From: an uncultured Planctomycetia bacterium
Lineage (GTDB): Bacteria > Omnitrophota > Gorgyraeia > Duberdicusellales > 4484-171
Length of the DNA: 64,000 nucleotides
Direction of reading: 5' to 3'
Assembly (NCBI GenBank): GCA_964629655.1
Contig: CAZVQU010000001.1
Location: 20,788-84,787, forward strand
Positions 8,030-53,534 of this stretch are shown here, piece after piece (position 1 is the stretch's first letter; each line of letters opens with the position of its first letter). Below the pieces are notes generated by a model, which ran no database searches, was not told the DNA's origin, and saw only the letters and a list, made by a program, of their open reading frames with translations. Position numbers and translations under genes: made by a program.

Positions 8030-8761
8030 TCAGAATTCAGCAAAGTCTCCGATGTTTTTTCCTTCAATCATCCCACCTGTAAGTTCTATCTCTGTATAAA
8101 TTTTGCTGACTGCTCCGCCGTATTCTGTAATCTCCTCGTTTTCCTTAACTTTACCTACACCTTGGGCAAGCCAAGTTGTTGTTATCACAACCATTGAAGA
8201 TCCCTTAATCTTGAGGAAAGAAAATATTACTAAACAATCTTCAAACCTTCCAGCAGGAACAGTTACGTCTTCAAACCCTTGAAATTTAATTTCGGCTGTA
8301 GCCATTCCTCTATCGACTATATTACCATCAGTATCGTAAACTACGAATGCTCTTGAGTCTTTAAATCCTTGATTCAATTGCAAATTATCAGGAAAAGCTA
8401 TTGCCGGCTGGGAGAATACGATATCCCCACCGTCTTTCGCAACTTTATGTAAGTAAATCCCCTCTTCTCCCAAGCTGTAATAGAAAATGGGGTTTCTGTC
8501 CCTGTCTCGTGTTTTGTCCATTTCTCTCTCAAGAAGATACACTTCCTTACCGTTAAGCAAATCCTTAGTTCGAATGACACTATGTATAATATGTCCAGAA
8601 GGCTTGCCCCGTCCTGTCTCAGATAGTGTATACCTCCATTCATTGCCGATTCCTATAGGAAAGTATTTTGATATTTCATAAGAATCCTCTGCTTTTAACA
8701 GCGGTTGAATTAGACAAATGGAAATACAAACTGCAAGAATGCTTAAAGCTATTTTTTTCAT
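8030..8761 (-). CDS. Secreted protein of unknown function (beta-domain family A, copy 1)
   Basis: 243 aa with signal peptide MKKIALSILAVCISICLIQPLLKA. Paralogous to 10949..11677 and to the C-terminal domain of 16921..19161 (shared YxISxYFP, PIFYYSL, VTVPAGRFEDCL, WLAQGVGKVK motifs). Confidence 0.5.
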   Translation of the reverse strand: MKKIALSILAVCISICLIQPLLKAEDSYEISKYFPIGIGNEWRYTLSETGRGKPSGHIIHSVIRTKDLLNGKEVYLLEREMDKTRDRDRNPIFYYSLGEEGIYLHKVAKDGGDIVFSQPAIAFPDNLQLNQGFKDSRAFVVYDTDGNIVDRGMATAEIKFQGFEDVTVPAGRFEDCLVIFSFLKIKGSSMVVITTTWLAQGVGKVKENEEITEYGGAVSKIYTEIELTGGMIEGKNIGDFAEF

Positions 8762-10948: not shown

Positions 10949-11677
10949 TTAATCCTTACCCCTAACCTTTTTAGTTGTTGCTTTTTTAAGTTCTTTCTCA
11001 TTATAAACTTTGTGGTATCTCCCTTCTCTATACCTAATGAGTTCTTCTTTTACTTTAACTTTGCCTATTCCATGAGCAAACCAAGCTGTTTCTTTAACAA
11101 TTAGAGTATCTCTGGATGTTGAAAATACCCATAAAAAATCAATTTTTAAGCATTTATCGAATTTTCCCGCTGGGACAACCACATCTTCAACACCCTTAAG
11201 TTTAGCCTTTGTCTCAACTGTTCCTGCATCTATTAACTTATTCTTGGCTGTGTAAACTTGTATCGATGCAGAAACACTATGTTCCCGATTCGATTGTAAG
11301 CCGTTAGGGAAAAAAAGTAGCGGAGGGGAAAATACAAGATATCTGTTCTCTTCTACCATTTGATCTAAACTGATTCCTGAATTACTAAGACTATAGTAAA
11401 AAATCGGTTTTTTATTTCGGTCGGGTTCATAAAGATACATTTCTTTTTTACCTAGCAACTTCCTAGACTTAATGCAGCTTAGGGAGTCAACAGAGTCTGT
11501 CTTTGCTTCCTGGGAAAATCCCTCTTCAACCACATACCCTTGATATGCCCAGCTATTTCCTACAATTAGCGGGAAATATTCTGATATATCATAAGGCGCT
11601 TGCGCATTTAAATATACATTGCTTAAAAGAATAATAACGCAACTAAAAAGAATGGTTAAAGTTAATCTTTTTACCAT
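10949..11677 (-). CDS. Secreted protein of unknown function (beta-domain family A, copy 2)
   Basis: 242 aa with a signal peptide and the same motifs as the 8030..8761 product (YDISEYFPLIVGNSW, PIFYYSLSNSG, VVVPAGKFDKCL, WFAHGIGKVKVKEE). Confidence 0.5.
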   Translation of the reverse strand: MVKRLTLTILFSCVIILLSNVYLNAQAPYDISEYFPLIVGNSWAYQGYVVEEGFSQEAKTDSVDSLSCIKSRKLLGKKEMYLYEPDRNKKPIFYYSLSNSGISLDQMVEENRYLVFSPPLLFFPNGLQSNREHSVSASIQVYTAKNKLIDAGTVETKAKLKGVEDVVVPAGKFDKCLKIDFLWVFSTSRDTLIVKETAWFAHGIGKVKVKEELIRYREGRYHKVYNEKELKKATTKKVRGKD

Positions 11678-12471
11678 TACTCATCTCCCTTTTCTCTTAA
11701 TAAAACCATCGCCGCTCCAATAGCTGCAGTAAATTGTGGATATTGCAATATCTTTATATCTCTCATAAATTCTTCTGTTAATGAATACAAAAGCCCTTTA
11801 TTTTGCGCGGGCCCTCCGTCTAAATAGATCTCTTCTTCAACATCTAAACTTCGCATTAAATCGGATAGCCTTCTTGCTATAGACTGATGCAATCCGGTTA
11901 TAATGTCACCTTTATTTACTTTTGCATACAAAAGGGATACTATCTCGCTTTCAACAAAAACAACGCATGTGCTATTAATGGTAACTTTTGACTGGCCTAT
12001 ATTTCCTAAATTTCCCAAATCAGAAACAGAAACACTTAATATATGCGCCGCTTTTTCCAAAAATCTGCCGGTCCCGGCTGCGCATTTGTCGTTCATTTTA
12101 AAATCCACAATTTTACCATCAGAAGAGATCTTAATAACTTTAATATCTTGCCCTCCTACATTGACAACTGTCCTTGCTGTTCCATTACTTAAATGATAAG
12201 CCCCCACGCCGATTGCTGTAATTTCGTCTACAACTCTCTCTCTATCGGGAAAAATACGTTTACCGTAACCAGTAGTAGCCACTCCTAAAATTTTTTCCTT
12301 TGACAAAGAGAGTTCTCCTAACCCCTTCATTAAAAGATTCTTTGATACCTTAGTGCTTTCAAAGGTAGCAGGAGCAACTTTTGACCAAAGCAATCTTCTC
12401 TTTTCATCAATAAAAACAACTTTAATTGCGGCTGTGCCCAAATCAACTCCTGCAGCTACCATTTCCCTCAC
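11677..12471 (-). CDS. BadF/BadG/BcrA/BcrD-type ATPase; HgdC/YjiL-like CoA-substrate-specific enzyme activase
   Basis: 264 aa: AGVDLGTAAIKVV actin-like ATPase N-terminus and the CAAGTGRFLE motif characteristic of [4Fe-4S]-bridged dehydratase activases. Confidence 0.8.
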   Translation of the reverse strand: MREMVAAGVDLGTAAIKVVFIDEKRRLLWSKVAPATFESTKVSKNLLMKGLGELSLSKEKILGVATTGYGKRIFPDRERVVDEITAIGVGAYHLSNGTARTVVNVGGQDIKVIKISSDGKIVDFKMNDKCAAGTGRFLEKAAHILSVSVSDLGNLGNIGQSKVTINSTCVVFVESEIVSLLYAKVNKGDIITGLHQSIARRLSDLMRSLDVEEEIYLDGGPAQNKGLLYSLTEEFMRDIKILQYPQFTAAIGAAMVLLREKGDE

Positions 12472-12482
12472 CCACCTTTTTA

Positions 12483-13709
12483 TTAAAGTGTTTCTTTAAA
12501 CGCCTCTAGCCTTGCTAAAATATTTTCCCTGTCTTCTTTCGAATAGTCTGTCTCAATTTTTATAAAACGAAAACCTTTTTCTTTTATTATCTTCTCATAG
12601 CTAAAGCTTTCTATATCGAACGGGTGGCAGCCTTTAAAAACATGGTAAACCACTCCTTTTATATCCTGTTCCTGCATTATTTCCAAAATGTTCTTCGCTC
12701 TATGTTCATTTTCAATAAACGTAGGGCAAGTACAGCTAAGTTGATATCTCTCTGCGATTGCTCTAAGAAGCTCATACTCTGAAGTATCATCATAAACTAC
12801 GCTGCCAAAAAGTCTCTCCGAAGTACACAAATCATCAGCGGCAATAAACATACCCACTTCCTCAATCAGCTCAGAAATCTTTAACTGAGGAAAGAATAAA
12901 GGCGAACCAAGAAGAAATATTCGAGGCTTTGTATTGCAACATAAATTATTATAGGCGCTACAGAATTCGTTTATCTTTTTTGTCCATGCCCCTGCATCAT
13001 CGAGCATAAAGGCATTGGCCAGAATTATGCTTTCTGTTCCAGAAATCAAGCCCTTACGCCTCATTTCAAGTAATTTTTCAAAGGCTTCCCAAGCTAACAT
13101 ATATTTATGGATTGAATTTAACAACTTTCTCTTATCAAGTCGCCTATTGGCACGTCTCTCTAAATATCGCTTTAATTCATATGTTTCTTCCAGCCATCTT
13201 TTCTGACTCTTTTGCGCTTCTTTAACATGAGGTAGCTCCATTATGTAAAAGTTGTAGTTTTCTTTACCCACCATCCCTGGCAGTTTAACTCTCCAGTCGC
13301 AAGATGTCGGAGTAATTAGCATCTCACATAACCCTTCTAATGATTGCTCACAATGAAACGCGCTTAAGGCAGACTTAATAAGAGGGCACGCCAAAACCGG
13401 CAAAGAAGATGATGAAAGCTTCTGTATAGCTAATGATCCACAGCACAATCGTATAGGGTGGAAACCTAGGGCATCGAGTAATTCCACTGGTACTGTATTG
13501 CAATATGTACCAACCACAGGTCTATCGAATCTTTCTTTTAATCTTTGAGGATAAGCAGCGAGTGAAAGGGTGTCAAGAAAATATTCAAATTCCTTAGAAA
13601 AAGTGCCTTTCTCTTTAAAAAAAACAATCTCTCGATTATACTCCTCAGCCATTTCCCTTTTAACCCGCTCTTGCATCCTTCGATTTAAATCACCGGGTAA
13701 ATTTAACAT
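12483..13709 (-). CDS. 2-hydroxyacyl-CoA dehydratase family protein (HgdB/YjiM-like, HGD-D)
   Basis: 408 aa with a C-terminal GVVYHVFKGCHPFDIESF region typical of the HGD-D family. AAGGAGA RBS 13 nt upstream of the ATG. Confidence 0.65.
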   Translation of the reverse strand: MLNLPGDLNRRMQERVKREMAEEYNREIVFFKEKGTFSKEFEYFLDTLSLAAYPQRLKERFDRPVVGTYCNTVPVELLDALGFHPIRLCCGSLAIQKLSSSSLPVLACPLIKSALSAFHCEQSLEGLCEMLITPTSCDWRVKLPGMVGKENYNFYIMELPHVKEAQKSQKRWLEETYELKRYLERRANRRLDKRKLLNSIHKYMLAWEAFEKLLEMRRKGLISGTESIILANAFMLDDAGAWTKKINEFCSAYNNLCCNTKPRIFLLGSPLFFPQLKISELIEEVGMFIAADDLCTSERLFGSVVYDDTSEYELLRAIAERYQLSCTCPTFIENEHRAKNILEIMQEQDIKGVVYHVFKGCHPFDIESFSYEKIIKEKGFRFIKIETDYSKEDRENILARLEAFKETL

Positions 13710-13760
13710 TGCTACTTATTTCTCCTTTTAAACCATTCAAAAAAATATTTTTGTGAATAC
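13692..13760. repeat. 68-bp duplicated leader element, copy 1 (RBS plus first 6 codons of the hgdB-like gene and about 50 bp upstream)
   Basis: About 96% identical to 15043..15112; on the minus strand it contains the AAGGAGA RBS and ATGTTAAATTTACCCGGT. Confidence 0.8.
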
Positions 13761-13777
13761 CTTAATACAAACATTCT

Positions 13778-14938
13778 TTATTCCGCTAAATGATAGTTCT
13801 TTCCAAGATACTCGGCTAAGTATTCTCCAATAACTCGATGGCTGAATTCATTTAAGTGAGTATCTATTTCAAAAAATAATGAATTAAAACTCGAAGCTCG
13901 ATCTAAAATAGTAACTAAATCTAGATGGGAAATATTCAGAGTGTGGCAGAAATTAACAATATATTCCTCTAACTCCTTCTTGCTATATTCCACCACTAAA
14001 AGTGGTACTTTGTGGCTATCACAAAGCTCTTTATATTGTTTAAGGAGAAGGAATATTAATTTCTGGAAATATTTTTTTTTATATTTTTTTCGCTCTTGCA
14101 CTATAGACTGCTGTTTCTCGGAAATACCCTTCCACCGTTCCTTATCTCTTTCTTCCAAGCTCATCTTGACCCTCTTATGAAATATACTATAATTCAATAG
14201 AGACAATAACCTGCTTTTTCCAAAAATAGCCCCTTTGGCCCATTTGCCTGCGTTTTTTAGAGATACTTTAAGTGCATCATTATTTTTTTGGCTACCCAAT
14301 GCATCTTTAACAAAATCTACATCTTGCAATATGAGCTTAGTTTCATCTTCGTTAAGAACAAATCTCGGTTTGAATGCACCCCAGGGAGTTATAAAATCGC
14401 TGCTTCGCTCAAGAAAATAATCAGATACAAATAATACGACTAAATCTGGATTATATCTAAATCCATCTTTTTTTAGCTGCAATAGTGACTGGCCAATCCC
14501 GAATCCCGAAATTCCCATATTTACCACTTCTACATGTTCCAAAGATTGCTCGATTATGTCCGTAAAGCGCTGGCCATAATTTATACCCCACCCAAGCACA
14601 GTGGATTCACCTAAGGCAATTATCCTGAATTCTTGGGCAGGCTTCTGGAAAGGAATCTCTTTATCTCTTATACCTTGAGAATTTATAGAATAAACAACAT
14701 CGAAATCTGAAGTAATAACGCGGTCTTTCACATAAGGCTTTAATTTCCACCCCAGGTATTTATCAAACCTTGGTGCGCTATGGTAATGTCTCAACATAGA
14801 TTCCATATATTCTATTTTTTCATCTAATTTCGTTCTCTTTATGTATCTATCAGCGGCTACTTCTGCAATTACAGCACCTATAAATAATCCTGCGATTACA
14901 AGGAGTACCTTACGGAAAGATTGTTTTGCCTTCACCAC
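13778..14938 (-). CDS. Membrane-anchored SGNH/GDSL-family hydrolase (second copy)
   Basis: 386 aa with an N-terminal TM helix, IIALGESTVLGWG block I and DTHLNEFSH block V. Confidence 0.5.
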   Translation of the reverse strand: MVKAKQSFRKVLLVIAGLFIGAVIAEVAADRYIKRTKLDEKIEYMESMLRHYHSAPRFDKYLGWKLKPYVKDRVITSDFDVVYSINSQGIRDKEIPFQKPAQEFRIIALGESTVLGWGINYGQRFTDIIEQSLEHVEVVNMGISGFGIGQSLLQLKKDGFRYNPDLVVLFVSDYFLERSSDFITPWGAFKPRFVLNEDETKLILQDVDFVKDALGSQKNNDALKVSLKNAGKWAKGAIFGKSRLLSLLNYSIFHKRVKMSLEERDKERWKGISEKQQSIVQERKKYKKKYFQKLIFLLLKQYKELCDSHKVPLLVVEYSKKELEEYIVNFCHTLNISHLDLVTILDRASSFNSLFFEIDTHLNEFSHRVIGEYLAEYLGKNYHLAE

Positions 14939-15042: not shown

Positions 15043-15112
15043 ACCGGGTAAATTTAACATTGCTACTTATTTCTCTTTTTAAACCATTCAAAAAAATATT
15101 TTTTTGAAGAGG
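15043..15112. repeat. 68-bp duplicated leader element, copy 2 (overlaps the 3' end of the polyferredoxin CDS, upstream of the SGNH gene)
   Basis: Same sequence with one substitution (RBS becomes AAGAGA) and a poly-T length change; it supplies the last 13 codons of 15063..16043. Confidence 0.8.
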
Positions 15113-16043: not shown

Positions 16044-16924
16044 TATAACTTAAATCTCTTTCTTGTTACGATGGCAACGAGGGATACGATAACCAGCGAA
16101 GACATAAAAATGCTAACACCTAATCTTAAGTTTATGTCTCTACCCCTTGTTGCAATATGTTCTGAGTGTTTAAATGAAATAGTATAAGAACCTTTAAAAA
16201 TGGAGTCGCCTAAAACACGTTCAACTATGATTAAATCCTGTCTCCGTTCCTTATCTCCCTGTGGAATATAAGAAAAACTATCCACTACGCCCGTCTCTAC
16301 TTGTTGGTTTTTTCCGTTATCGCCGATTATATTTATATTTTTACAATCGAAAGGGATTTTATCAAAATTTACCGAGAACCCTATTGGATAACCTAATCTT
16401 CGGTAAAAAGTATTATCCTCCTTTGCTCGTTCCCTGTGAATATTTATTTCCAATTGCCTTTTAAAAGGGTTATTTAAAGTATTTCCCTTTGCATTATTCA
16501 AGATTGAGTCGTTGCCAAGAATAAAGAAAGACGTCTTAGCAAGATAATTATACTCTAATCCCCGCTCTGATTTAGCCATCTTTACCAAGACAGCACACCA
16601 GCGTTCCCTATCTGAATTAACTCTAATGCGGGCCCTTTTCTCTCCTTTTACAATATTTAATTTGTAAAAAATATCTTCTCCTCTTTTATTTTTTTCTCCA
16701 AAAGTATAAGCGGCTTCAATATTATCTAATCCCTCAATGCTTTTCTTTCTATCGGGGAATTGTCCATAACAAACAAAGAGATGTTGTGTCGCCATATCAC
16801 TTTTATTCCCTGCCTCATCATCATACTCTAGCCAAATGTAATCGTCCTTAGAAAAATCGGCATAGGCTATGCTGGCACTTAAATAGAGAGGTAAAACTAT
16901 GAAAATAAATAAAATATTTTTCAT
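16043..16924 (-). CDS. Exported protein with C-terminal membrane anchor, unknown function
   Basis: 293 aa with an N-terminal signal peptide and a C-terminal hydrophobic helix followed by RKRFKL. Confidence 0.4.
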   Translation of the reverse strand: MKNILFIFIVLPLYLSASIAYADFSKDDYIWLEYDDEAGNKSDMATQHLFVCYGQFPDRKKSIEGLDNIEAAYTFGEKNKRGEDIFYKLNIVKGEKRARIRVNSDRERWCAVLVKMAKSERGLEYNYLAKTSFFILGNDSILNNAKGNTLNNPFKRQLEINIHRERAKEDNTFYRRLGYPIGFSVNFDKIPFDCKNINIIGDNGKNQQVETGVVDSFSYIPQGDKERRQDLIIVERVLGDSIFKGSYTISFKHSEHIATRGRDINLRLGVSIFMSSLVIVSLVAIVTRKRFKL

Positions 16925-19161
16925 TTTTTAGCAACTATTTCTTTGAGTTCGAGAACCTCAACAAAAGAATTATTGTAACGATTCATAATATTTTTTTCTT
17001 CAGGTATCATATATTCTGTATTCATAAAAGGAATATGTGTGTGGATAGTCTTAACATGGCCTATTTTTGCAGCAATCCAAAAATTATAAATATGCATAAG
17101 CTTACCCTTCCCAAGCTCATCTTTATAAACATGCCTTGCTAAGAAATGAAGACATTTGAATTTTCCTGCCTCAACAGTTATTTCTTCTTTACCTATAAAT
17201 GAAATTTCTGCCTCTATTTTTTCCTTACCAATAAGTTTGCCGTCGTAATCAAAAATCGATTGAATAGTAGAAAATGTAATGTCTTCTTTAAGTTTCGAGG
17301 GTATTAACAAAAGTGGTGGGGAAAACTCTCTAATTACTTTTAACGGGACTTCTCCTACCAGATGCTTATTTCTGTAAAACATTACTCCTTGAGAAGTTAG
17401 TTTTCTTGTCTGGATTCTATCGTTATATTCCCCCTGGAAGAGCAAGTCGAATTGTTTTCCGGATTCCATTTGCTGAACATTCTTGATACTTACGGTTACT
17501 ATATTGCTTCTGTTATCCTCAAGATGACTATATACATATTCAACATCTTCATCCAAAGGAAAATATTCAAAAACAGAGTAGGCATCTTTTGACATTGACC
17601 CCTCTATGAAATGTAATGCTTCTTCGTTTCCATTTTGTGTATAGTCTTTTTTCAACAATAGCCACCCGTCTTCAAAGGCAACAACGCCATAGCTATCCTG
17701 TATTATAGCATGTTTTAATTTCGAATAATACTTTGTTTCGCTTAAATTGTAATAAGAATGAGTATATAAATCGACAAATATGTAATCCCATTCGTAGTAT
17801 TTCTCTATAACATGTTTATCAAATAGCCCAAAATACTTGCACCTGCCTAAATGCGGTACCAAAAATTCTGGAGCTAGACAACTTGCCTGATCAGGAATCA
17901 TTTTTAGAAACTTATGCCCAATCCGGGCATGTTTAGTTAACTTATAATCTTTGAAACTAAAGCCCTGGGTAAATGGTAAAGGCCCTAAGTTTTCAGAAAA
18001 ATTACTTTTTGGCTGAACATAGTAATGCTGAAGCAAGACTGGGACCAAGATAAACGTGGCTAATAGATTATGAAGTAACTTTCTGCTATTTTTATATTTA
18101 AAAAAAGCTTTATCTATAAAATCGATAATCCTTCCCGCCCCATATATGGCACCTGCAAAGACAAAAGCCAAGATTAAGAAATGTCCTGAGGAATGTTGGT
18201 TTCTAAGGAGAATATAGCCCGCCTCGGCAATAACTGGTAGAAGATACAGAGGGCTAAAGAAAACAAAGATATTAGGCAAACGAGAAAAAATGTAAATTAA
18301 CATATTGCCCTCATTGAACATATTCTTCATAATCAATATGGGATGGAACAAGGCATATCGCAAAGCATCAATTAGGCTATCTCCATACTGTACAAAATGG
18401 ACCATGCCTACCGGAAAAGGCCTGTTAATTAGCTTAAGGTAAACAGAACATGCGGTTATTGCAATTATCAACCAGATAAGGCTAATTTTTAATATCGCTT
18501 TTCCGTATCTTTTTCTCTCTTTAGAAAAAAGAAGAATTATACCTAAAACTAGAGTCATCAGCACAGCATCAATTTTAGATAGATTGGCCAAAATAATAAA
18601 AATAATGAATTTCTTAAAATCTCCCTTTTCGAGATAATAAAAAGCGAACAAGAGAAATGGTAAAGCTAAAGCAAGGGGTATGTATCCAAGCACTGCGCCT
18701 GTGGTTACGATTGGATGCAACAAATATGCAAGAGAGAATGTAACTGCCAGATAAGCACTATCCAGGCGTTTTTTTGTAAGTAGATACACGGGTAAAGCCC
18801 CGCTTGCTAAAAAAACGCTCTGAAAAACAAGCAATGCCTCCGGCCGGGGAAAAAGCCTATAAATAAAGGCAAGGAGGTAATTGAGGGGACTGGAGAAAAT
18901 AAGTACAGCACTATACTCCGGCAATCTAAGAACATCAAAAGGACTAACTCCTGCAGCCAATTTTGGGTATATATGTGTATATGCCCAGCCAAAGCTAGTT
19001 TGAGAAAAACTTCCAAATTTAAAAATATTAATAAGAGAAAAAAATATGATAAATATCCCAGAAGCTATAAGCACTATAGCTAATCCGAAATTACCTATTT
19101 TTTTATGATGGCTTGAAATAACCATGCTGAAGCGCAGTAATATCTTCTTACCTATTCTCAA
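16921..19161 (-). CDS. Polytopic membrane protein (paralog A) fused to a C-terminal secreted family-A beta-domain
   Basis: 746 aa. Residues from about 92 to 507 are encoded by a 1248-bp block 100% identical to one in 22914..24503. The C-terminal part carries ITVEAGKFKCLHF and WIAAKIGHVK, the motifs of secreted family A. Confidence 0.5.
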   Translation of the reverse strand: MRIGKKILLRFSMVISSHHKKIGNFGLAIVLIASGIFIIFFSLINIFKFGSFSQTSFGWAYTHIYPKLAAGVSPFDVLRLPEYSAVLIFSSPLNYLLAFIYRLFPRPEALLVFQSVFLASGALPVYLLTKKRLDSAYLAVTFSLAYLLHPIVTTGAVLGYIPLALALPFLLFAFYYLEKGDFKKFIIFIILANLSKIDAVLMTLVLGIILLFSKERKRYGKAILKISLIWLIIAITACSVYLKLINRPFPVGMVHFVQYGDSLIDALRYALFHPILIMKNMFNEGNMLIYIFSRLPNIFVFFSPLYLLPVIAEAGYILLRNQHSSGHFLILAFVFAGAIYGAGRIIDFIDKAFFKYKNSRKLLHNLLATFILVPVLLQHYYVQPKSNFSENLGPLPFTQGFSFKDYKLTKHARIGHKFLKMIPDQASCLAPEFLVPHLGRCKYFGLFDKHVIEKYYEWDYIFVDLYTHSYYNLSETKYYSKLKHAIIQDSYGVVAFEDGWLLLKKDYTQNGNEEALHFIEGSMSKDAYSVFEYFPLDEDVEYVYSHLEDNRSNIVTVSIKNVQQMESGKQFDLLFQGEYNDRIQTRKLTSQGVMFYRNKHLVGEVPLKVIREFSPPLLLIPSKLKEDITFSTIQSIFDYDGKLIGKEKIEAEISFIGKEEITVEAGKFKCLHFLARHVYKDELGKGKLMHIYNFWIAAKIGHVKTIHTHIPFMNTEYMIPEEKNIMNRYNNSFVEVLELKEIVAKK
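17641..18888. repeat. 1248-bp perfect direct repeat, copy A (inside CDS 16921..19161)
   Basis: 100% identical to 22971..24218 (offset 5330 bp) in every line compared; flanks diverge abruptly. Confidence 0.9.
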
Positions 19162-20336
19162 TATTTGAATATTTCTCCGGAAATAATTTCTTCTATAAAC
19201 TTATTATAATTATTAGCATTTTTTTGCTTGTACTCAGAATTTATTTTGACAGCTTTTTCTGCTATTTTTCTACAATAATTGCAATCTTCGCAGGATTTAT
19301 AACGGCATTTTTCATTAAAAAAATGTTCTATAAAACCGTCTAATTTTGTGTTATCTATGCATACACCCACATCCGTCAGCATATTTTTCCTATTAATCAG
19401 CTTAAAAATATTTACAGTAAAAGGGTGGAAGAAATGTTTAAACTTATGAAAGAGATTTGGCTTTTGAAGCCAAAGGCTTTTTGAGGAATTAATAAATAAA
19501 TCGTATAAATTGCCTCTATACTCTCTCTTTAAATAGGCACCCACAATAAACGCAATGGCTTCCGTAGTCATATGCCTATCTACAACTTTAAATCTTTCTA
19601 TACCTATACTCTCATAAACAGAAATATCTTCCGGTCTTATCCATGTTGCACGAATAAAATTTGCCGGTTCGGCAATCATCATGTTTCTGCACATAAACCG
19701 ACAATAATCAAACATAAAGCTGCCCAGCTTGCCCGAAGTTTGGGAAGCATGCGAAGTAATATTATTGTGATAAAAAAAGAAAGGACAGTCTTGAATACAA
19801 TCATCATTCACAATAAGCTGCAATTCACATCTTACATTTTCCTTAATGCTCTTTAATAACTTAAAATCGCGCGTTAATTGAGTCTGAGGTAAAGTTATTG
19901 TTGAAGCGCCTAGCTCTTCCCAAAATTTTGCTTTCATTACAGAATTGACATGGGCAAAACAAGAAACTGAAAGTTCAAAATGCGAATAATGCTTTTTTAC
20001 CAACTGGGCGAGATAAGGGGTTGCTGCCACAACTCCGTCTACCTTAATCTCAGATAACCAATTTAACAGCCTATGCAATTTTTTCTGACCAGCCCTGGTG
20101 AACTCCTGACCCCCCATGCAAGATGTATTTAAGAGGTAATAAAACTTCAAACCGCTTTTGTGGATTTCGGATATATGTCTTTTTGCTTTCTTTTTTGTTA
20201 CTTTCAAGGATATACATGACGGCCTTCCTCCACCTGCAAAATCTCTATCCAGTTTCCCATAGACTGTATCTACGTTTGGTTTCTTTATCTTTTCAATCAA
20301 ATCACTCTGCCAGTTTGTAGGAACGGTCAATTTCAT
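19158..20336 (-). CDS. Cys-rich protein, possibly peptidase U32 family-like (tentative)
   Basis: 392 aa; N-terminus MKLTVPTNW...LIEKIKK...VDTVYGKL resembles U32 N-terminal TIM-barrel starts, with several Cys clusters (CIQDCPFF, CRFMC, CEDCNYC). Paralog of 21821..22876. Confidence 0.3.
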   Translation of the reverse strand: MKLTVPTNWQSDLIEKIKKPNVDTVYGKLDRDFAGGGRPSCISLKVTKKKAKRHISEIHKSGLKFYYLLNTSCMGGQEFTRAGQKKLHRLLNWLSEIKVDGVVAATPYLAQLVKKHYSHFELSVSCFAHVNSVMKAKFWEELGASTITLPQTQLTRDFKLLKSIKENVRCELQLIVNDDCIQDCPFFFYHNNITSHASQTSGKLGSFMFDYCRFMCRNMMIAEPANFIRATWIRPEDISVYESIGIERFKVVDRHMTTEAIAFIVGAYLKREYRGNLYDLFINSSKSLWLQKPNLFHKFKHFFHPFTVNIFKLINRKNMLTDVGVCIDNTKLDGFIEHFFNEKCRYKSCEDCNYCRKIAEKAVKINSEYKQKNANNYNKFIEEIISGEIFKY

Positions 20337-21811
20337 ATTTTTTTCCTTATCTTTGCGCGTCCTTTATTTTTCAATCCGCCAATAGCCCCCTTGAGCAACA
20401 TCGAAAATAGCCATATAGATCCGTACAAAAGATTCTTAAAGGTAACTGTCCGTTTCAAAATATGACGGATAATAGCCTTTGGTTGCACATATACCTGAAA
20501 CATAGCTTTTCTCTGTAGGCGTCTGAGAGTGGCGCTATCTAATCCGTCAGGACAATAAACAAGATCGCCGCCAGCCGATGTCCAATCACACCAGCTGGTA
20601 AATTTCTCCGGTTCACCTATATCATTATTTTTAATGTAATCTTCAAAGAATTTAGACCCTGGATAAGGAACAGCTATGTTAAATTTTACTATATCGCATT
20701 CTAAATCCTTAGCAAATTTTATTGTATCATTGCAGGTATCCACAGTTTCTCCCGGAAGACCAAGCATAAACAAGCCCAAACTTAATATTCCCGCTTTTTT
20801 TGTTTCCCGCAAAGCCGTCCTCGCTTGATCCAATGTCGTTCCTTTATTAATGCTTTTAAGAATCTTCTCATTGCCAACTTCTATGCCATACATAATAAGA
20901 TGCAAACCTGCTTCTTTCATTGCTCTTAATAACTTTGGAGTTACTTTATCAACCCTTGTTTCTGTGCACCAGTTAAGTTTTTTATGTAGTTTGCGCTTTA
21001 TCAAGATATCGCAAAATTCTAATCCGGATTTCTCGTCAAAAGGGAAATAGGCATCGGATAGACCAAAATATTTTATATTAAGATTTTCAAAGAAATACTC
21101 CATTTCGTCAACAACCTTGTTTAAATTCCGATAGCGCATCTTGGGATATACCTTATCCTGTGAGCAATAATAACATTTGTAGGCGCAGCCTCGCGATGCC
21201 ATTATTGGTACTGCCCGGGCTTTAGTTATCGCTGCCAACGGAACTTCCCTGTAATCATCTAAATTTAGCATGTCCCAAGCGGGAAAGCTTAAACTATCAA
21301 GGTTCTCGATAATTTCACGCCGGGGATTGTGTCTTATTCCGTTTGCGGTACGGAAACTAATTCCAGATATCTCTTCTAAACTCCCGCCGTGGATAAGGCA
21401 AGTGCTCAGTTCCAGCATAGCGATCTCTCCCTCTCCCCTTACAACAATATCCGCTGTATTATCGCTAAGTACTTCTTCAGGAAAACAAGTAGCATGAGTG
21501 TTGCCTAACACAATTCTGCTATCGATCTTTGAGTCACGCATCTGCCGAACTAACCTTCTTATATCCGGCATAACCGGAGTAAGTGCGGAAAATCCCACTA
21601 TAACCGGTTTCTCCTTTTTAATTAAGTCTATAAGCTCATCGTCAGTAGTTTTTCTCGCGAACTGGTCGACAACCGAAACCTTTACGCCGTTACTTCGCAA
21701 GGTAGCGGCAATATAACATAAACCAAGTGGCGCAATAGGAGTGAGAAACTTTTTATATCCCCAGCTATTTTCTATTAAACTCGAATTAGGATTTATTAAA
21801 AGGACTTCCAT
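20333..21811 (-). CDS. B12-binding radical SAM protein
   Basis: 492 aa: B12-binding domain (RIVLGNTHATCFPEEVL...VVRGEGE) followed by RGCAYKCYYC, which fits CxxxCxxC. Confidence 0.8.
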   Translation of the reverse strand: MEVLLINPNSSLIENSWGYKKFLTPIAPLGLCYIAATLRSNGVKVSVVDQFARKTTDDELIDLIKKEKPVIVGFSALTPVMPDIRRLVRQMRDSKIDSRIVLGNTHATCFPEEVLSDNTADIVVRGEGEIAMLELSTCLIHGGSLEEISGISFRTANGIRHNPRREIIENLDSLSFPAWDMLNLDDYREVPLAAITKARAVPIMASRGCAYKCYYCSQDKVYPKMRYRNLNKVVDEMEYFFENLNIKYFGLSDAYFPFDEKSGLEFCDILIKRKLHKKLNWCTETRVDKVTPKLLRAMKEAGLHLIMYGIEVGNEKILKSINKGTTLDQARTALRETKKAGILSLGLFMLGLPGETVDTCNDTIKFAKDLECDIVKFNIAVPYPGSKFFEDYIKNNDIGEPEKFTSWCDWTSAGGDLVYCPDGLDSATLRRLQRKAMFQVYVQPKAIIRHILKRTVTFKNLLYGSIWLFSMLLKGAIGGLKNKGRAKIRKKI

Positions 21812-21820
21812 CTGGTTTCC

Positions 21821-22876
21821 TTAAGCCTCTTCAAGAACTTTACTAACTTCCTTTAGCAAATATTCTTTCTTTTTTTCATCAATTGAAATTCTTTTATCAT
21901 CTACGTAAAATACATTTTTAGTAGTATAAATTCTTAATAACGATTTAATATGTTTTTCTCTTGAAAGTACTTTAAAAATCTCTTTGGGGTATAAGAAATG
22001 TAAATATTTAAAACTGTTTCTAATGACCGCTTCTGACAATAATCCTAATAAAATTCTAATAAGGGAAGAATACTTACTTTCTAATACTGAAGTGTTTATC
22101 AATCTAAGGCAATTTCCCTTACAGTTTTTCTGAGAATAAGCTGTCACACAATTGACAACCCACTGGGTAGGCTTGGTCCTGCCGGCTATTTTTAAAAAAT
22201 CAACGCCAAGTCTTTCGTATGTTTCTATTTTATTTGGATGGATAAAGCCGGTTCTTCTAACTATTGAAGAGGGGTCGTCTAATTTTAATTTTAAACATTT
22301 TACTATTTCTTTTCCAAAATAATCTGTCTTCTTGAGGTGTTCTTCTTCGTAAGGGCAATTCACTAAGCAAATGTTATTCGCCAGAATCTTTATCTGCAAT
22401 CCTGTCTTCTTTCTCAAAAGCTCAATGAAGTTAAGGTCGTTCTTCTTGCCATAATCTACGCAAAGGATGTCACAGCCTAGGTTCTTATAGAACATTGCTC
22501 TTTCAATAGAATCAATCCTGCAAGCAATGGAACTGCAGATTTTAAACCGATGATTTTTCTTTAAAAATGAAATTACATCCGGATTAGAAGCAGTTACCAT
22601 ATCTACGCTTATTCCACTGAGCTCTTTTAAAAAAGCAATCCTTCTTCCATCTAAGGTGAAGTTTGGATGGTTCATTATATAATTAAATTTAATACCCCGG
22701 GCATGGGAATATTCTATATATTTCTTCAATCTTTCCATACTAACCTTAGGCAAAGCATAAGAAGGCAAGACAGTCTCGCCGGGGTCGTGATTTAAACTGC
22801 CATATGTATCGTGGATTCTGCCTTTTAATCTGTCGATAAGTTCAAAATTGAAATTTGTAGGTGCTGATATCTGCAT
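21821..22876 (-). CDS. Paralog of 19158..20336 (U32-like, tentative)
   Basis: 351 aa; MQISAPTNFNFELIDRLKGRIHDTYGSL aligns with the N-terminus of the 19158 product. Confidence 0.3.
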   Translation of the reverse strand: MQISAPTNFNFELIDRLKGRIHDTYGSLNHDPGETVLPSYALPKVSMERLKKYIEYSHARGIKFNYIMNHPNFTLDGRRIAFLKELSGISVDMVTASNPDVISFLKKNHRFKICSSIACRIDSIERAMFYKNLGCDILCVDYGKKNDLNFIELLRKKTGLQIKILANNICLVNCPYEEEHLKKTDYFGKEIVKCLKLKLDDPSSIVRRTGFIHPNKIETYERLGVDFLKIAGRTKPTQWVVNCVTAYSQKNCKGNCLRLINTSVLESKYSSLIRILLGLLSEAVIRNSFKYLHFLYPKEIFKVLSREKHIKSLLRIYTTKNVFYVDDKRISIDEKKKEYLLKEVSKVLEEA

Positions 22877-22913
22877 TTTTATACTACAACTGTGTCTTTT
22901 TGATTAAATAATA

Positions 22914-24503
22914 TTATCCATCCAGCAATTTCTCTATACAACTTAGCACTTCTGTATTTTTTTCTTTCGCATAGTCTTTTTTCAACAATAGCCACCCGTC
23001 TTCAAAGGCAACAACGCCATAGCTATCCTGTATTATAGCATGTTTTAATTTCGAATAATACTTTGTTTCGCTTAAATTGTAATAAGAATGAGTATATAAA
23101 TCGACAAATATGTAATCCCATTCGTAGTATTTCTCTATAACATGTTTATCAAATAGCCCAAAATACTTGCACCTGCCTAAATGCGGTACCAAAAATTCTG
23201 GAGCTAGACAACTTGCCTGATCAGGAATCATTTTTAGAAACTTATGCCCAATCCGGGCATGTTTAGTTAACTTATAATCTTTGAAACTAAAGCCCTGGGT
23301 AAATGGTAAAGGCCCTAAGTTTTCAGAAAAATTACTTTTTGGCTGAACATAGTAATGCTGAAGCAAGACTGGGACCAAGATAAACGTGGCTAATAGATTA
23401 TGAAGTAACTTTCTGCTATTTTTATATTTAAAAAAAGCTTTATCTATAAAATCGATAATCCTTCCCGCCCCATATATGGCACCTGCAAAGACAAAAGCCA
23501 AGATTAAGAAATGTCCTGAGGAATGTTGGTTTCTAAGGAGAATATAGCCCGCCTCGGCAATAACTGGTAGAAGATACAGAGGGCTAAAGAAAACAAAGAT
23601 ATTAGGCAAACGAGAAAAAATGTAAATTAACATATTGCCCTCATTGAACATATTCTTCATAATCAATATGGGATGGAACAAGGCATATCGCAAAGCATCA
23701 ATTAGGCTATCTCCATACTGTACAAAATGGACCATGCCTACCGGAAAAGGCCTGTTAATTAGCTTAAGGTAAACAGAACATGCGGTTATTGCAATTATCA
23801 ACCAGATAAGGCTAATTTTTAATATCGCTTTTCCGTATCTTTTTCTCTCTTTAGAAAAAAGAAGAATTATACCTAAAACTAGAGTCATCAGCACAGCATC
23901 AATTTTAGATAGATTGGCCAAAATAATAAAAATAATGAATTTCTTAAAATCTCCCTTTTCGAGATAATAAAAAGCGAACAAGAGAAATGGTAAAGCTAAA
24001 GCAAGGGGTATGTATCCAAGCACTGCGCCTGTGGTTACGATTGGATGCAACAAATATGCAAGAGAGAATGTAACTGCCAGATAAGCACTATCCAGGCGTT
24101 TTTTTGTAAGTAGATACACGGGTAAAGCCCCGCTTGCTAAAAAAACGCTCTGAAAAACAAGCAATGCCTCCGGCCGGGGAAAAAGCCTATAAATAAAGGC
24201 AAGGAGGTAATTGAGGGGGGCAAAGAAATGAGAAACAGCTGGATATTCCGGCAGTATATACATTTCAGAAAAACTTCTAAATTCGGTTATCTTTAGATAC
24301 GCGTATGGATATGAATATCCAAAAGAATTAGCAGAAAAACTTCTAAATTTAAAAATATTGACAAAACCGAATGAAACAACAAAAATTGTAATCGCCATTA
24401 GAATAAAAATCAATAAATAATCTCTATTCCTATAACGGATTATACTGTTTATTCTGGAATCGGCTGGATGCTTAGATTCAGATTTTCCACACATTCCAAT
24501 CAT
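22914..24503 (-). CDS. Polytopic membrane protein (paralog B)
   Basis: 529 aa sharing the 1248-bp identical block with 16921..19161; the N- and C-termini are diverged. Confidence 0.5.
   Translation of the reverse strand: MIGMCGKSESKHPADSRINSIIRYRNRDYLLIFILMAITIFVVSFGFVNIFKFRSFSANSFGYSYPYAYLKITEFRSFSEMYILPEYPAVSHFFAPLNYLLAFIYRLFPRPEALLVFQSVFLASGALPVYLLTKKRLDSAYLAVTFSLAYLLHPIVTTGAVLGYIPLALALPFLLFAFYYLEKGDFKKFIIFIILANLSKIDAVLMTLVLGIILLFSKERKRYGKAILKISLIWLIIAITACSVYLKLINRPFPVGMVHFVQYGDSLIDALRYALFHPILIMKNMFNEGNMLIYIFSRLPNIFVFFSPLYLLPVIAEAGYILLRNQHSSGHFLILAFVFAGAIYGAGRIIDFIDKAFFKYKNSRKLLHNLLATFILVPVLLQHYYVQPKSNFSENLGPLPFTQGFSFKDYKLTKHARIGHKFLKMIPDQASCLAPEFLVPHLGRCKYFGLFDKHVIEKYYEWDYIFVDLYTHSYYNLSETKYYSKLKHAIIQDSYGVVAFEDGWLLLKKDYAKEKNTEVLSCIEKLLDG
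22971..24218. repeat. 1248-bp perfect direct repeat, copy B (inside CDS 22914..24503)
   Basis: See copy A. Confidence 0.9.
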
Positions 24504-25417: not shown

Positions 25418-26833
25418 CTATCTATTTTGTATATATCGCATCAATATAATCATTCCTTTAAAAAATTCTAAAAGCACTTTTACATTTGTGGATCTTCTCA
25501 AAAAGTTAATTACTATTCTGGGCCTAAAATAAAATTCTTTCAGCATTTTCTTGGCAGCATATAATAATTTTTCTTCATTTAAATGGGTAGAAGCAAACAT
25601 TGGAAAAGCACCATTAAATTTTTGCCAATCTTGGTAAAAATTGCCAACCTTTTTTATATTTTTATATATGGGTGATCCCGGATATGGAGTAAAGAAATTC
25701 ACTTTGATATTATCTAATTTGGTTTTTTTAATAAATACCATTGTCTCTTTAATCGTATCTTCTGTTTCAGAAGGGATCCCTATCATAAAATATCCCATAA
25801 TATTAAACCCAATCCTGCTCACTAAATTAATTGCTTCTTTAATTGTCTCTAGCTGGATACCCTTGTTCAAAATATTTAACATTCTCTGGGAACCACTTTC
25901 TATCCCGATGCAAATTTGCCAACAGCCTGCCTTTTTCATCTCTAAAAGAATATCTTTATCAATACTGTCTGCCCTGACCATGCAAACCCAGCTTACTTTC
26001 AATTTTTCATCTCTTATCATTTTACAAAATTGGAACATTCTCTCTTTAGAAAAAACGAAATCTGGATCATTAAACACAATCTCTCTGATATTATAATAAT
26101 GCTGCAGATGCTTTATTGAATCTATAATATAAGCTGGGCTATGAGATCTTACTTTTTTACCAGAAACAGTTTTACTGCAACAAAAAATACAATTCCCAAC
26201 ACATCCTCGCGAAGTTACAAGGTGAGCAACGGGAAACCTATGAAAACTTGATAAATTTGGAGCATAATGTGAAAAATCTGGCAGCAAATCCCATGCAGGC
26301 ATAGGTAGTGTATCTAATTCATCTATTAATGCAGGCGGTGAGGCAACAACCAAATTATTTTCTTCCCTGAATATAATTCCTTCAATTTTTCTTAAATCCA
26401 TCTTCTCTGCATGAGCTCGCAGCAAACGGACAATAGTCTTCTCTCCTTCCCCAATCACTCCTATATCAAAACCTTTAAAACGCTGCATTGTTATTTCCGG
26501 CAATGCGGATAAATGGACACCCCCGAGAATAATAACTATCCGGGAATTGTATTGTTTAATTGACATAGCTAATTCTCCTGCGCTAATAATAGAACAGGTA
26601 GTAGCAGTGATTCCGACATATTCTGGAGAATCAATCATAATTTGTTCCAATATCTTATTAATGCCTAAATGTAGGGCTGGCGCATCGATAATTTTAGTTT
26701 CAAAACCTGCTTGGCGAGTAACAGCTGCCAAATAACAAAGGTTATTAGGTTGCAATCCATGCAACACTCCTCCTAAAATACCGTATCTTTGATAAGAAGT
26801 TAGTGGCGGATTTATAAAAACTATTTTTGCCAT
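25418..26833 (-). CDS. B12-binding radical SAM protein
   Basis: 471 aa: B12-binding domain (VIILGGVHLSALPE...GVIGEGE) plus RGCVGNCIFC. Confidence 0.8.
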   Translation of the reverse strand: MAKIVFINPPLTSYQRYGILGGVLHGLQPNNLCYLAAVTRQAGFETKIIDAPALHLGINKILEQIMIDSPEYVGITATTCSIISAGELAMSIKQYNSRIVIILGGVHLSALPEITMQRFKGFDIGVIGEGEKTIVRLLRAHAEKMDLRKIEGIIFREENNLVVASPPALIDELDTLPMPAWDLLPDFSHYAPNLSSFHRFPVAHLVTSRGCVGNCIFCCSKTVSGKKVRSHSPAYIIDSIKHLQHYYNIREIVFNDPDFVFSKERMFQFCKMIRDEKLKVSWVCMVRADSIDKDILLEMKKAGCWQICIGIESGSQRMLNILNKGIQLETIKEAINLVSRIGFNIMGYFMIGIPSETEDTIKETMVFIKKTKLDNIKVNFFTPYPGSPIYKNIKKVGNFYQDWQKFNGAFPMFASTHLNEEKLLYAAKKMLKEFYFRPRIVINFLRRSTNVKVLLEFFKGMIILMRYIQNR

Positions 26834-52755: not shown

Positions 52756-53534
52756 AGCTTCTTAAATAATTCCGGTTCCCTCTTTATAAAAAACCAATAT
52801 CCTCCGACAAAAAAAACTACCGAGATTAAGGAGGCTAGGAGCATAAGCTGTAAAGTTGGAACAGATCCTTCATAGAGAATCTGTCGATATAACATGATAT
52901 AGTAAGTTAAGGGATTGAATAGACAGATCCAGCGATAGGGAAATTCTAACATCTGAAGAGAGTAAAATACCGGGGTAACCCAAAACCATAGCATTAAGCC
53001 AACGGATAAAAAATGCATCAAATCGTCAGAAAAGGCATTGAGGGCGGAGAAAATCATCCCTAAGCCCAGAAGAAAAACTAAATGTAAGATAAAAACTAAC
53101 ACAAGAATTGGTAAAACTTTAATCATCTGGGGATTGGCGATGAAGAAAAAAGGTAAAAGAAAAATGATTCCGATTATAAAACTCAAAGAATTCGCAAAAA
53201 CGCAAGACGCCGGAATAAATTCACGCGGGAATATACCTTGTTTTAATATTGCTGAATCGGCAGCAAAAGAGTTAGTTACTTCCATTACAGTATTGGAAAA
53301 AAATAACCAGGGAATAATTCCTGAAAGAACGAATAAAGTGAAATCAGGAATCTCAACCTTAAAAACATGGGTAAAAATAATATCAATGCTAAAAGCCAAA
53401 ATTAAAGGTGTGGCAACCGCCCACCAGAGGCCGAGCATCGCCCCGGAATACTTAGCCTTGAACTTCTTAGCCATCATCCCTTTAAGAATAGCTCTGGCCT
53501 GAAACGCTTTTATTATTCGTCCTTTAACAATCAT
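52752..53534 (-). CDS. ABC-2 type (Wzm/TagG-like) polysaccharide exporter permease
   Basis: 260 aa with 6 predicted TM helices and ABC-2 topology, immediately upstream of the Wzt-like ATPase with a 4-nt overlap. Confidence 0.7.
   Translation of the reverse strand: MIVKGRIIKAFQARAILKGMMAKKFKAKYSGAMLGLWWAVATPLILAFSIDIIFTHVFKVEIPDFTLFVLSGIIPWLFFSNTVMEVTNSFAADSAILKQGIFPREFIPASCVFANSLSFIIGIIFLLPFFFIANPQMIKVLPILVLVFILHLVFLLGLGMIFSALNAFSDDLMHFLSVGLMLWFWVTPVFYSLQMLEFPYRWICLFNPLTYYIMLYRQILYEGSVPTLQLMLLASLISVVFFVGGYWFFIKREPELFKKL

Follow-up and report, generated by a model that had tools for sequence, protein, structure and literature searches.

Among duplicated genes of prokaryotes, tufA and tufB are the classical case of concerted evolution. 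Wang & Chen 2018 (PMC6053082) describe 26 gene families with long-lasting, recurrent concerted evolution of prokaryotic duplicates. In Helicobacter pylori, the babA/babB and homA/homB pairs undergo segmental concerted evolution (Pride & Blaser 2002, as summarised in PMC3960876): divergent evolution at one end of the genes contrasts with homogenisation of the other end within strains by intragenomic recombination, which the summary describes as RecA-type gene conversion. A comparable pair is found in a 64,000-nucleotide (nt) stretch of DNA (the window; GenBank assembly GCA_964629655.1, contig CAZVQU010000001.1, positions 20,788 to 84,787) from an Omnitrophota bacterium, in which two membrane-protein genes of the DUF2079 family, here called A and B, share an exact direct repeat of 1248 nt inside otherwise diverged coding sequences. 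Sequence comparison with related contigs indicates that the repeat is very probably the product of recurrent ectopic (interlocus) gene conversion between the two paralogs, in tracts whose 5' edge is fixed and whose 3' edge varies.

As in the H. pylori pairs, to the extent that PMC3960876 summarises them, the locus has two full-length paralogs of which one end groups by orthology and the rest is homogenised per genome, giving chimeric genes. Unlike those pairs, it appears to encode inner-membrane enzymes with the glycosyltransferase C (GT-C) fold in environmental Omnitrophota rather than pathogen surface adhesins; its copies are 5.3 kb apart in one operon-like cluster, not at distant loci; and its fixed edge is common to species-level lineages and exact to the nucleotide. 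Like the families of Wang & Chen 2018 (PMC6053082), A and B are closer within a genome than to their orthologs, repeatedly across lineages, but their homogenisation is only partial, its extent differing between sister lineages (at least 347 nt versus 1248 nt). Unlike cassette-type antigenic variation (pilE/pilS, vlsE-like), which draws on several silent truncated donors, the locus consists of two complete open reading frames (ORFs) under purifying selection. The DUF2079 pair displays every sequence-level mark of concerted evolution, a process itself well known in bacteria. To our knowledge DUF2079 is not among the described cases; no paper mentioning DUF2079 was found in the literature searched, PF09852 gave nothing useful, and nothing of the sort is described there for this family or this phylum. 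Knowledge of gene conversion itself is unchanged by what is a solid but ordinary example; its value lies in showing segmental concerted evolution cleanly, and in more than one lineage, for a phylum that is uncultivated.

An exact repeat inside two diverged genes

Both genes belong to DUF2079 (PF09852; 143.2 bits for A and 149.5 bits for B against a gathering threshold of 28.2), and their products are NCBI proteins P0039 (A) and P0002 (B), encoded on one contig of 762,369 bp. The genes and their parts are as follows.

16921..19161, minus strand: gene A, DUF2079 membrane protein fused to a C-terminal DUF3108-like domain (Pfam PF09852, E 1.7e-41; weak PF21347 match)
22914..24503, minus strand: gene B, DUF2079 membrane protein of 529 amino acids, predicted GT-C fold (Pfam PF09852, E 2.1e-43)
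17641..18888, minus strand: repeat copy (putative conversion tract) in gene A, exact 1248-nt match to 22971-24218, residues 92-507 of the 746-residue ORF
22971..24218, minus strand: repeat copy (putative conversion tract) in gene B, exact 1248-nt match, residues 96-511
18889..19161, minus strand: A-specific N-terminal module, 86% nt identity to A orthologs and 49-54% to B
24219..24503, minus strand: B-specific N-terminal module, apparently never converted, 89-91% nt identity to B orthologs and 49-54% to the A module
22914..22970, minus strand: B-specific 3' tail (last 18 codons and stop), 48% nt identity to the aligned part of A
16921..17640, minus strand: A-specific 3' part, a short linker and the DUF3108-like domain, 85% nt identity to A orthologs over the B-alignable 17587-17640
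18889..22970, minus strand: unique 4082-nt spacer between the copies, comprising the A N-terminal module, U32-like, B12-radical-SAM and U32-like genes, and the B tail

The sequence-only reading had described a 1248-bp, 100% identical direct repeat between two diverged paralogs 5.3 kb apart, covering the core of the proteins (about residues 92-507 of copy A), with abrupt edges inside the coding sequences and diverged flanks, and the reanalysis reproduces each of these features. The two copies match exactly at an offset of 5330 nt; at both ends identity rises from about 45% to 100% within one codon; and the flanks outside the tract carry 131 differences in 279 alignable columns (53% nt identity), with 41% protein identity in the N-terminal flank. 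The probability that all 131 differences would miss a 1248-nt block is approximately 1e-97, and that of an identical run of 1248 nt at flank-level identity approximately 1e-344. A k-mer scan of the whole window detected no further copy or partial cassette of the tract, the only other exact repeats of at least 20 nt being a 33+27-nt pair at 13692/15043. The N-terminal modules, of which that of B comprises a cytoplasmic tail, the first transmembrane helix (TM1) and the first external loop, and the C-terminal parts are the only differences between the A and B proteins in the window. Translation of gene A probably starts either at TTG 19161 (746 residues) or at ATG 19125 (734 residues), the latter being the annotated start of its orthologs; exact-protein look-ups of A (both lengths) and of B in the contig index returned no match.

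Orthology outside the tract, paralogy within it

Two contigs from ENA, L001 and L002, have the gene order of the window: deacetylase, B (515 residues), U32, radical SAM, U32, A (734 residues), a 293-residue gene, Fer4_5, HGD-D and BcrAD. Because their neighbouring proteins are 77-89% identical to the window counterparts, these contigs represent a sister species-level lineage, about 10-15% diverged. More distant family members (L003-L012, about 50% amino acid identity) have a single DUF2079 gene; the scan of GTDB species representatives returned one of these, L003, as the sole relative, and the metagenome scan returned mostly short single-copy contigs of use as outgroups. The named relatives are annotated as Candidatus Omnitrophota.

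Identities by segment, taken from a codon alignment of all copies and numbered by the nucleotides of gene B (nt 1 is window position 24503), are listed below; A_L and B_L denote the A and B genes of the sister lineage.

nt 61-285 (N segment, outside the tract): orthologs A/A 86% and B/B 89-91%; paralogs A/B 49-54%
nt 286-632: lineages 91% identical; paralogs 100% identical in the window, L001 and L002
nt 861-1207: sister-lineage paralogs 81%; window tract 86% to A_L and 79% to B_L
nt 1208-1470: sister-lineage paralogs 65%; window tract 83% to B_L and 67% to A_L
nt 1471-1533: sister-lineage paralogs 75%; window tract 92% to A_L and 75% to B_L

The duplication is older than the split of the lineages, for the flanks group by orthology: the paralogs are as far apart in the N segment as either is from outgroup L003, and in the 3' tail the A orthologs are 85% identical whereas A and B are 48-56% identical. 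At nt 285, the position of the last difference between the paralogs in the window, L001 and L002 alike, this relationship is reversed. In its 5' part, the tract diverges by about 9-10% between the lineages; over nt 286-632 these differences amount to 30 sites (21 of them synonymous), and both copies carry all 30. The sister-lineage paralogs are identical from nt 286 for at least 347 nt and only 65-81% identical further 3'; the tract measures 1248 nt in the window versus 347-576 nt in the sister lineage.

Synonymous sites follow the same division. Between paralogs, the proportion of synonymous sites that differ (pS) is 0.63-0.77 in the N segment, which is saturated, and 0 in the tract, where none of approximately 270 synonymous sites differs between the window copies across five segments. 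Over the same five segments, the A and B ortholog pairs of the two lineages have pS values of 0.24-0.56, with one exception (0.93 for the pair B_w/B_L1 in the 63-nt segment C5, which has about 12 synonymous sites). Synonymous divergence being zero within the tract and high outside it, purifying selection is excluded as the cause of the identity. The N-terminal modules themselves have ratios of nonsynonymous to synonymous divergence (dN/dS) of 0.18-0.42 between orthologs (0.18 for the A module), which denote purifying selection on both, so that A and B are functional genes and not silent cassettes.

Probable recurrent conversion with a fixed 5' edge

The sequence-only reading had offered recent gene conversion as one explanation of the repeat, and the orthology of the flanks, the paralog-identical cores in two lineages and the contrast between zero synonymous divergence in the tract and saturation outside it all support it. 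Conversion would also have been recurrent, because in each lineage both copies carry all 30 of the lineage-specific differences and the tract lengths differ. The process would consist of homologous recombination between the copies, probably of the RecA type, with non-crossover resolution, by which a stretch of one gene is copied into the other. Probably only non-crossover products have been retained, because a crossover would delete a 5.3-kb segment with the U32, radical-SAM and U32 genes of the spacer.

Every tract seen starts at nt 286, which is codon 96 of B and the end of the module formed by TM1 and the first external loop. Upstream of this point the copies may be too diverged for strand exchange, or they may be kept apart by selection; downstream lies the most conserved part of the family, which would keep substrates for recombination available. 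A fixed 5' edge with variable 3' ends would fit a homology edge inherited from the common ancestor, and selection against conversion of the TM1/loop-1 module would explain just as well why the edge is so sharp.

In the lineage of the window, the latest event or events homogenised all of the remaining homology, up to 18 codons before the stop codon of B. The absence of any difference in 1248 nt, set against approximately 10% divergence between lineages, places the last homogenisation in the most recent 2.4% or so of the time elapsed since they split (95% bound). The window tract is a mosaic, A-type over nt 861-1207 and nt 1471-1533 and B-type over nt 1208-1470, which requires at least two events of opposite direction, B-type sequence having passed into A and A-type sequence into B. 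In a third lineage (L013), the B gene is A-like over nt 861-1207 and is another, independent mosaic. It follows that whole-gene trees or identities of DUF2079 paralogs will mislead.

The segment nt 1208-1470 (window 23034-23296 and 17704-17966) is part of the C-terminal soluble domain and is hypervariable in this clade, with three types among close relatives: A_L, B_L (the window type) and B_L13 are mutually 65-72% identical in nucleotides. Another B gene, on contig L016 (2721-4232), is 83-98% identical to the B genes of L001 and L002 before nt 481, where it resembles L013, with which it also shares an Asn-synthase gene upstream of B; from nt 481 it matches L002 completely, nt 826-827 excepted, and is identical to L001 outside nt 601-840. 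L016 is either a natural recombinant between strains or a metagenomic chimera whose switch point lies within the conserved tract.

The repeat in independent assemblies

Logan contigs, which are per-run assemblies at k=31 and here came from several SRA runs, were fetched with the neighbouring genes as handles. Four of them (L017, L018, L019 and L020) are 100% identical to the window. L017 (4142 nt, 4 samples) corresponds to window positions 18859-23000, which comprise the whole 4082-nt spacer and 30 nt of tract on each side; the same two positions recur as the end of L018 (18859) and the start of L019 (23000); and L020 (7 samples) corresponds to positions 17670-15046, starting exactly 30 nt before the end of the tract in A. 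At a true repeat in a de Bruijn graph, contigs end k-1 nt inside the shared sequence. These contigs run exactly 30 nt (k-1) into the tract, and of its four junctions, three (A N-terminal module/tract, tract/B tail and tract/A tail) are therefore branch points in independent assemblies. Contigs of the sister lineage break in the same manner, L016 ending 54 nt past nt 285 (k=55) and L015 approximately 139 nt past it (k=141), and the MEGAHIT contig L014 starts approximately 139 nt before the first variable site, nt 633. The collapsed, chimeric or single-copy repeat that the sequence-only reading had allowed for is contradicted by the three junctions and the sister-lineage breaks; a one-copy or chimeric artefact is excluded. 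With the repeat real, the contiguity of the locus is not in doubt, and the repeat explains why short-read metagenome-assembled genomes of this clade (L013-L016) break inside these genes.

Several observations nevertheless weigh against recurrent conversion as set out above, or against its details. For the interior of the tract, the only witness to perfect identity is the assembly of the window itself, since the Logan contigs cover just the junctions, and assemblers can homogenise near-identical paralogs. L001 and L002 differ from each other at 20 sites in nt 633-789 (L001 5300-5460 versus L002 10630-10790 in gene B, and the same positions +5334 in gene A), with each version present in both copies, and are identical elsewhere apart from nt 826-827 in the B copy only. 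Among separately assembled sequences, the L001 version is present in L014, a fragment of an A gene, and the L002 version in the B gene of L016. Bulge collapse could therefore have made the sister-lineage copies look over-identical at nt 633-789: the two versions represent either strains that have each been homogenised or true differences between A and B that were lost to bubble collapse. The assignment of window segments as A-type or B-type, for its part, is noisy at single sites and depends on the sister lineage being itself unconverted.

Alternative explanations

It is rather unlikely, although it deserves to be taken seriously, that a real and recent conversion left copies that are, for example, 97-99.9% identical and were made 100% identical by bubble popping or by polishing with multi-mapped reads. 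The two SPAdes contigs of the sister lineage, which hold alternative versions of nt 633-789 in both copies, and the separate A and B fragments that carry one version each are what such smoothing would produce, and the starting point of L014, approximately 139 nt before the first variant site, implies that both versions were present in that sample. The same variants could equally be strain variation homogenised within each strain, however, and direct evidence for hidden variants is lacking in the window's own species, in which Logan contigs from up to seven samples match the window at 100% over 6.7 kb of flanking sequence, indicating a clonal population. Even if a few differences were smoothed, the full-length tract of the window would need real, recent conversion, because assemblers cannot merge 20-35% divergence; the 3' core of the sister lineage, at 65-81% identity between paralogs, was kept apart in SPAdes contigs.

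Selection to keep the cores identical, for example as a shared scaffold or interaction surface, was implied in the sequence-only reading, and is very unlikely as the cause. In each of the two lineages examined, the paralogs are indeed identical over the 5' third of the core (nt 286-632), which is also the best conserved part of the family, with 57-72% amino acid identity to distant relatives compared with 34-54% for the N-terminal module. But selection on the protein cannot erase synonymous differences, of which the window tract has none, and over nt 861-1533 the sister-lineage paralogs tolerate 19-35% nucleotide divergence with dN/dS of 0.15-0.28, so that identity of the whole core is not required of genes that are still under purifying selection; for two thirds of the core, the sister lineage contradicts such selection.

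Programmed variation, whether by deletion and duplication switching of the 5.3-kb segment (leaving a hybrid of B N-terminal module, core and A C-terminal domain) or by module swapping resembling that of pilE/pilS, is a most improbable reading: the direct orientation of the repeats would allow RecA-mediated deletion of the U32/radical-SAM/U32 spacer, and the confinement of protein differences to the N-terminal modules and C-terminal parts would suit such a system, but no hybrid or deleted arrangement occurs among the fetched contigs, and the window holds just two copies, both complete and under purifying selection.

That the window holds one copy only, or a chimeric or mis-joined contig, is next to incredible: mis-assembly is a classic hazard at an exact repeat of 1.25 kb, the relatives' short-read contigs break there, and L016 resembles a strain chimera switching inside the conserved tract, yet three distinct junction contexts each end k-1 nt into the tract in independent assemblies, the graph can branch at the tract start only if a second sequence leads into it, a species about 10-15% diverged has the same pair of genes, likewise with an identical stretch, and like assemblers kept 20-35% divergence apart in L001 and L002.

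Two further candidates were considered and ruled out: a recent duplication of the core followed by divergence of the flanks, since both flanks have clear orthologs in the sister lineage; and a mobile or foreign cassette inserted into both genes, since the tract is homologous to, colinear with and 59-70% identical in nucleotides to the cores of single-copy family members.

Predicted fold and the boundary at codon 96

A structural model of B built with AlphaFold2 (AF2) from 29 family members has a predicted local distance difference test score (pLDDT) of 87.4 and a predicted template modelling score (pTM) of 0.86. In a Foldseek comparison with the PDB, its 21 best matches are all GT-C glycosyltransferases, among them STT3/PglB, ALG12/ALG9, AftA, DPY19, GPI mannosyltransferase and PimE (STT3: E 3.8e-5, TMq 0.51; TM-scores up to 0.52; probability 0.89-1.00), whereas a profile search of PDB sequences detected no solved structure for the DUF2079 pair. 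On the basis of this model, A and B are predicted to be old paralogs encoding GT-C-fold, glycosyltransferase-like membrane proteins. They would share with the GT-C superfamily (STT3/PglB, ALG9/ALG12, AftA, DPY19, PimE) the overall fold, a TM1, then an external loop that contains short helices, and a soluble domain at the C terminus, and would differ from it in the additional DUF3108-like domain of gene A and in having no sequence similarity to solved structures.

In the model of B, TM1 spans residues 29-54 and is followed at residues 55-95 by a loop that includes short helices (the helices of the N-terminal region being 29-54, 64-72, 78-81 and 86-94); residue 96, with which the tract begins, is at the foot of the next helix, and a soluble alpha/beta domain occupies approximately residues 400-529. 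GT-C enzymes have their catalytic acid in the first external loop. E86 of the motif LPEY, nearly invariant among the 29 family members, lies in the loop region before residue 96 and may be its equivalent.

It is conceivable, though quite unlikely, that the edge at codon 96 is a functional module boundary, the TM1/loop-1 module and the C-terminal part carrying substrate specificity and the rest being an interchangeable, homogenised scaffold. If that were so, the pair would be a natural domain-swap experiment locating specificity in an uncharacterised glycosyltransferase family, and the direct repeats might also permit reversible deletion of the U32, radical-SAM and U32 genes. By singling out the first 95 residues (TM1 and external loop 1) and the C-terminal end, the conversion pattern offers a testable hint as to the site of specificity.

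Fusion of gene A to a DUF3108-like domain

In the outgroups (L003-L012), the DUF3108-like part is a separate gene directly downstream of the single DUF2079 gene; in L003 it is located at 11565-12326 and is the counterpart of the C-terminal part of gene A (window 16921-17583). Because the outgroups have a single DUF2079 gene with a separate DUF3108-like gene, A is the positional ortholog of the outgroup single-copy gene, fused to its neighbour, and B the extra copy; synteny with L003 likewise places A as the counterpart of the single-copy gene. Between orthologs, the C-terminal extension of A beyond the B-alignable part has a pS of 0.295 and a proportion of nonsynonymous differences (pN) of 0.066.

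The window contains two free-standing DUF3108-like genes (8030-8761 and 10949-11677), which are 38% identical to each other; the second is missing at that position in L001.

Surrounding gene cluster

A and B are part of a long single-strand gene cluster. Around them, B12-binding radical SAM genes are unusually frequent (six or more), and the cluster also encodes a polysaccharide deacetylase, a Fer4_5 membrane protein, two U32-like proteins and an HGD-D/BcrAD pair, which is 2-hydroxyacyl-CoA-dehydratase-like; it is a putative large, radical-SAM-rich envelope or glycan-modification cluster. The genes of the spacer between the repeats, all with Pfam matches, are as follows.

19158-20336, minus strand: U32-like gene
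20333-21811, minus strand: B12-radical-SAM gene
21821-22876, minus strand: U32-like gene

Among the radical-SAM and U32 paralogs of the cluster, which are 25-33% identical in protein sequence, no other conversion tracts were found. From 851 to 58737 of the window, all ORFs of at least 150 amino acids are on the minus strand except two short antisense ORFs inside minus-strand genes (25641-26096 and 53038-53502), and the GC skew over this interval is uniformly negative.

A second direct repeat in the cluster, of about 66 nt (13692-13757 and 15043-15108), matches exactly over 33 + 27 nt and at 96.8% over 63 nt; it comprises the 3' end of Fer4_5 together with the opening 18 nt of HGD-D. Its copies flank an insertion of 1351 bp with a gene of 386 amino acids (13778-14938); Fer4_5 and HGD-D are directly adjacent in L001, L002 and L003. 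The Logan contig L020 ends 30 nt into this repeat, indicating that it, too, is real in the reads.

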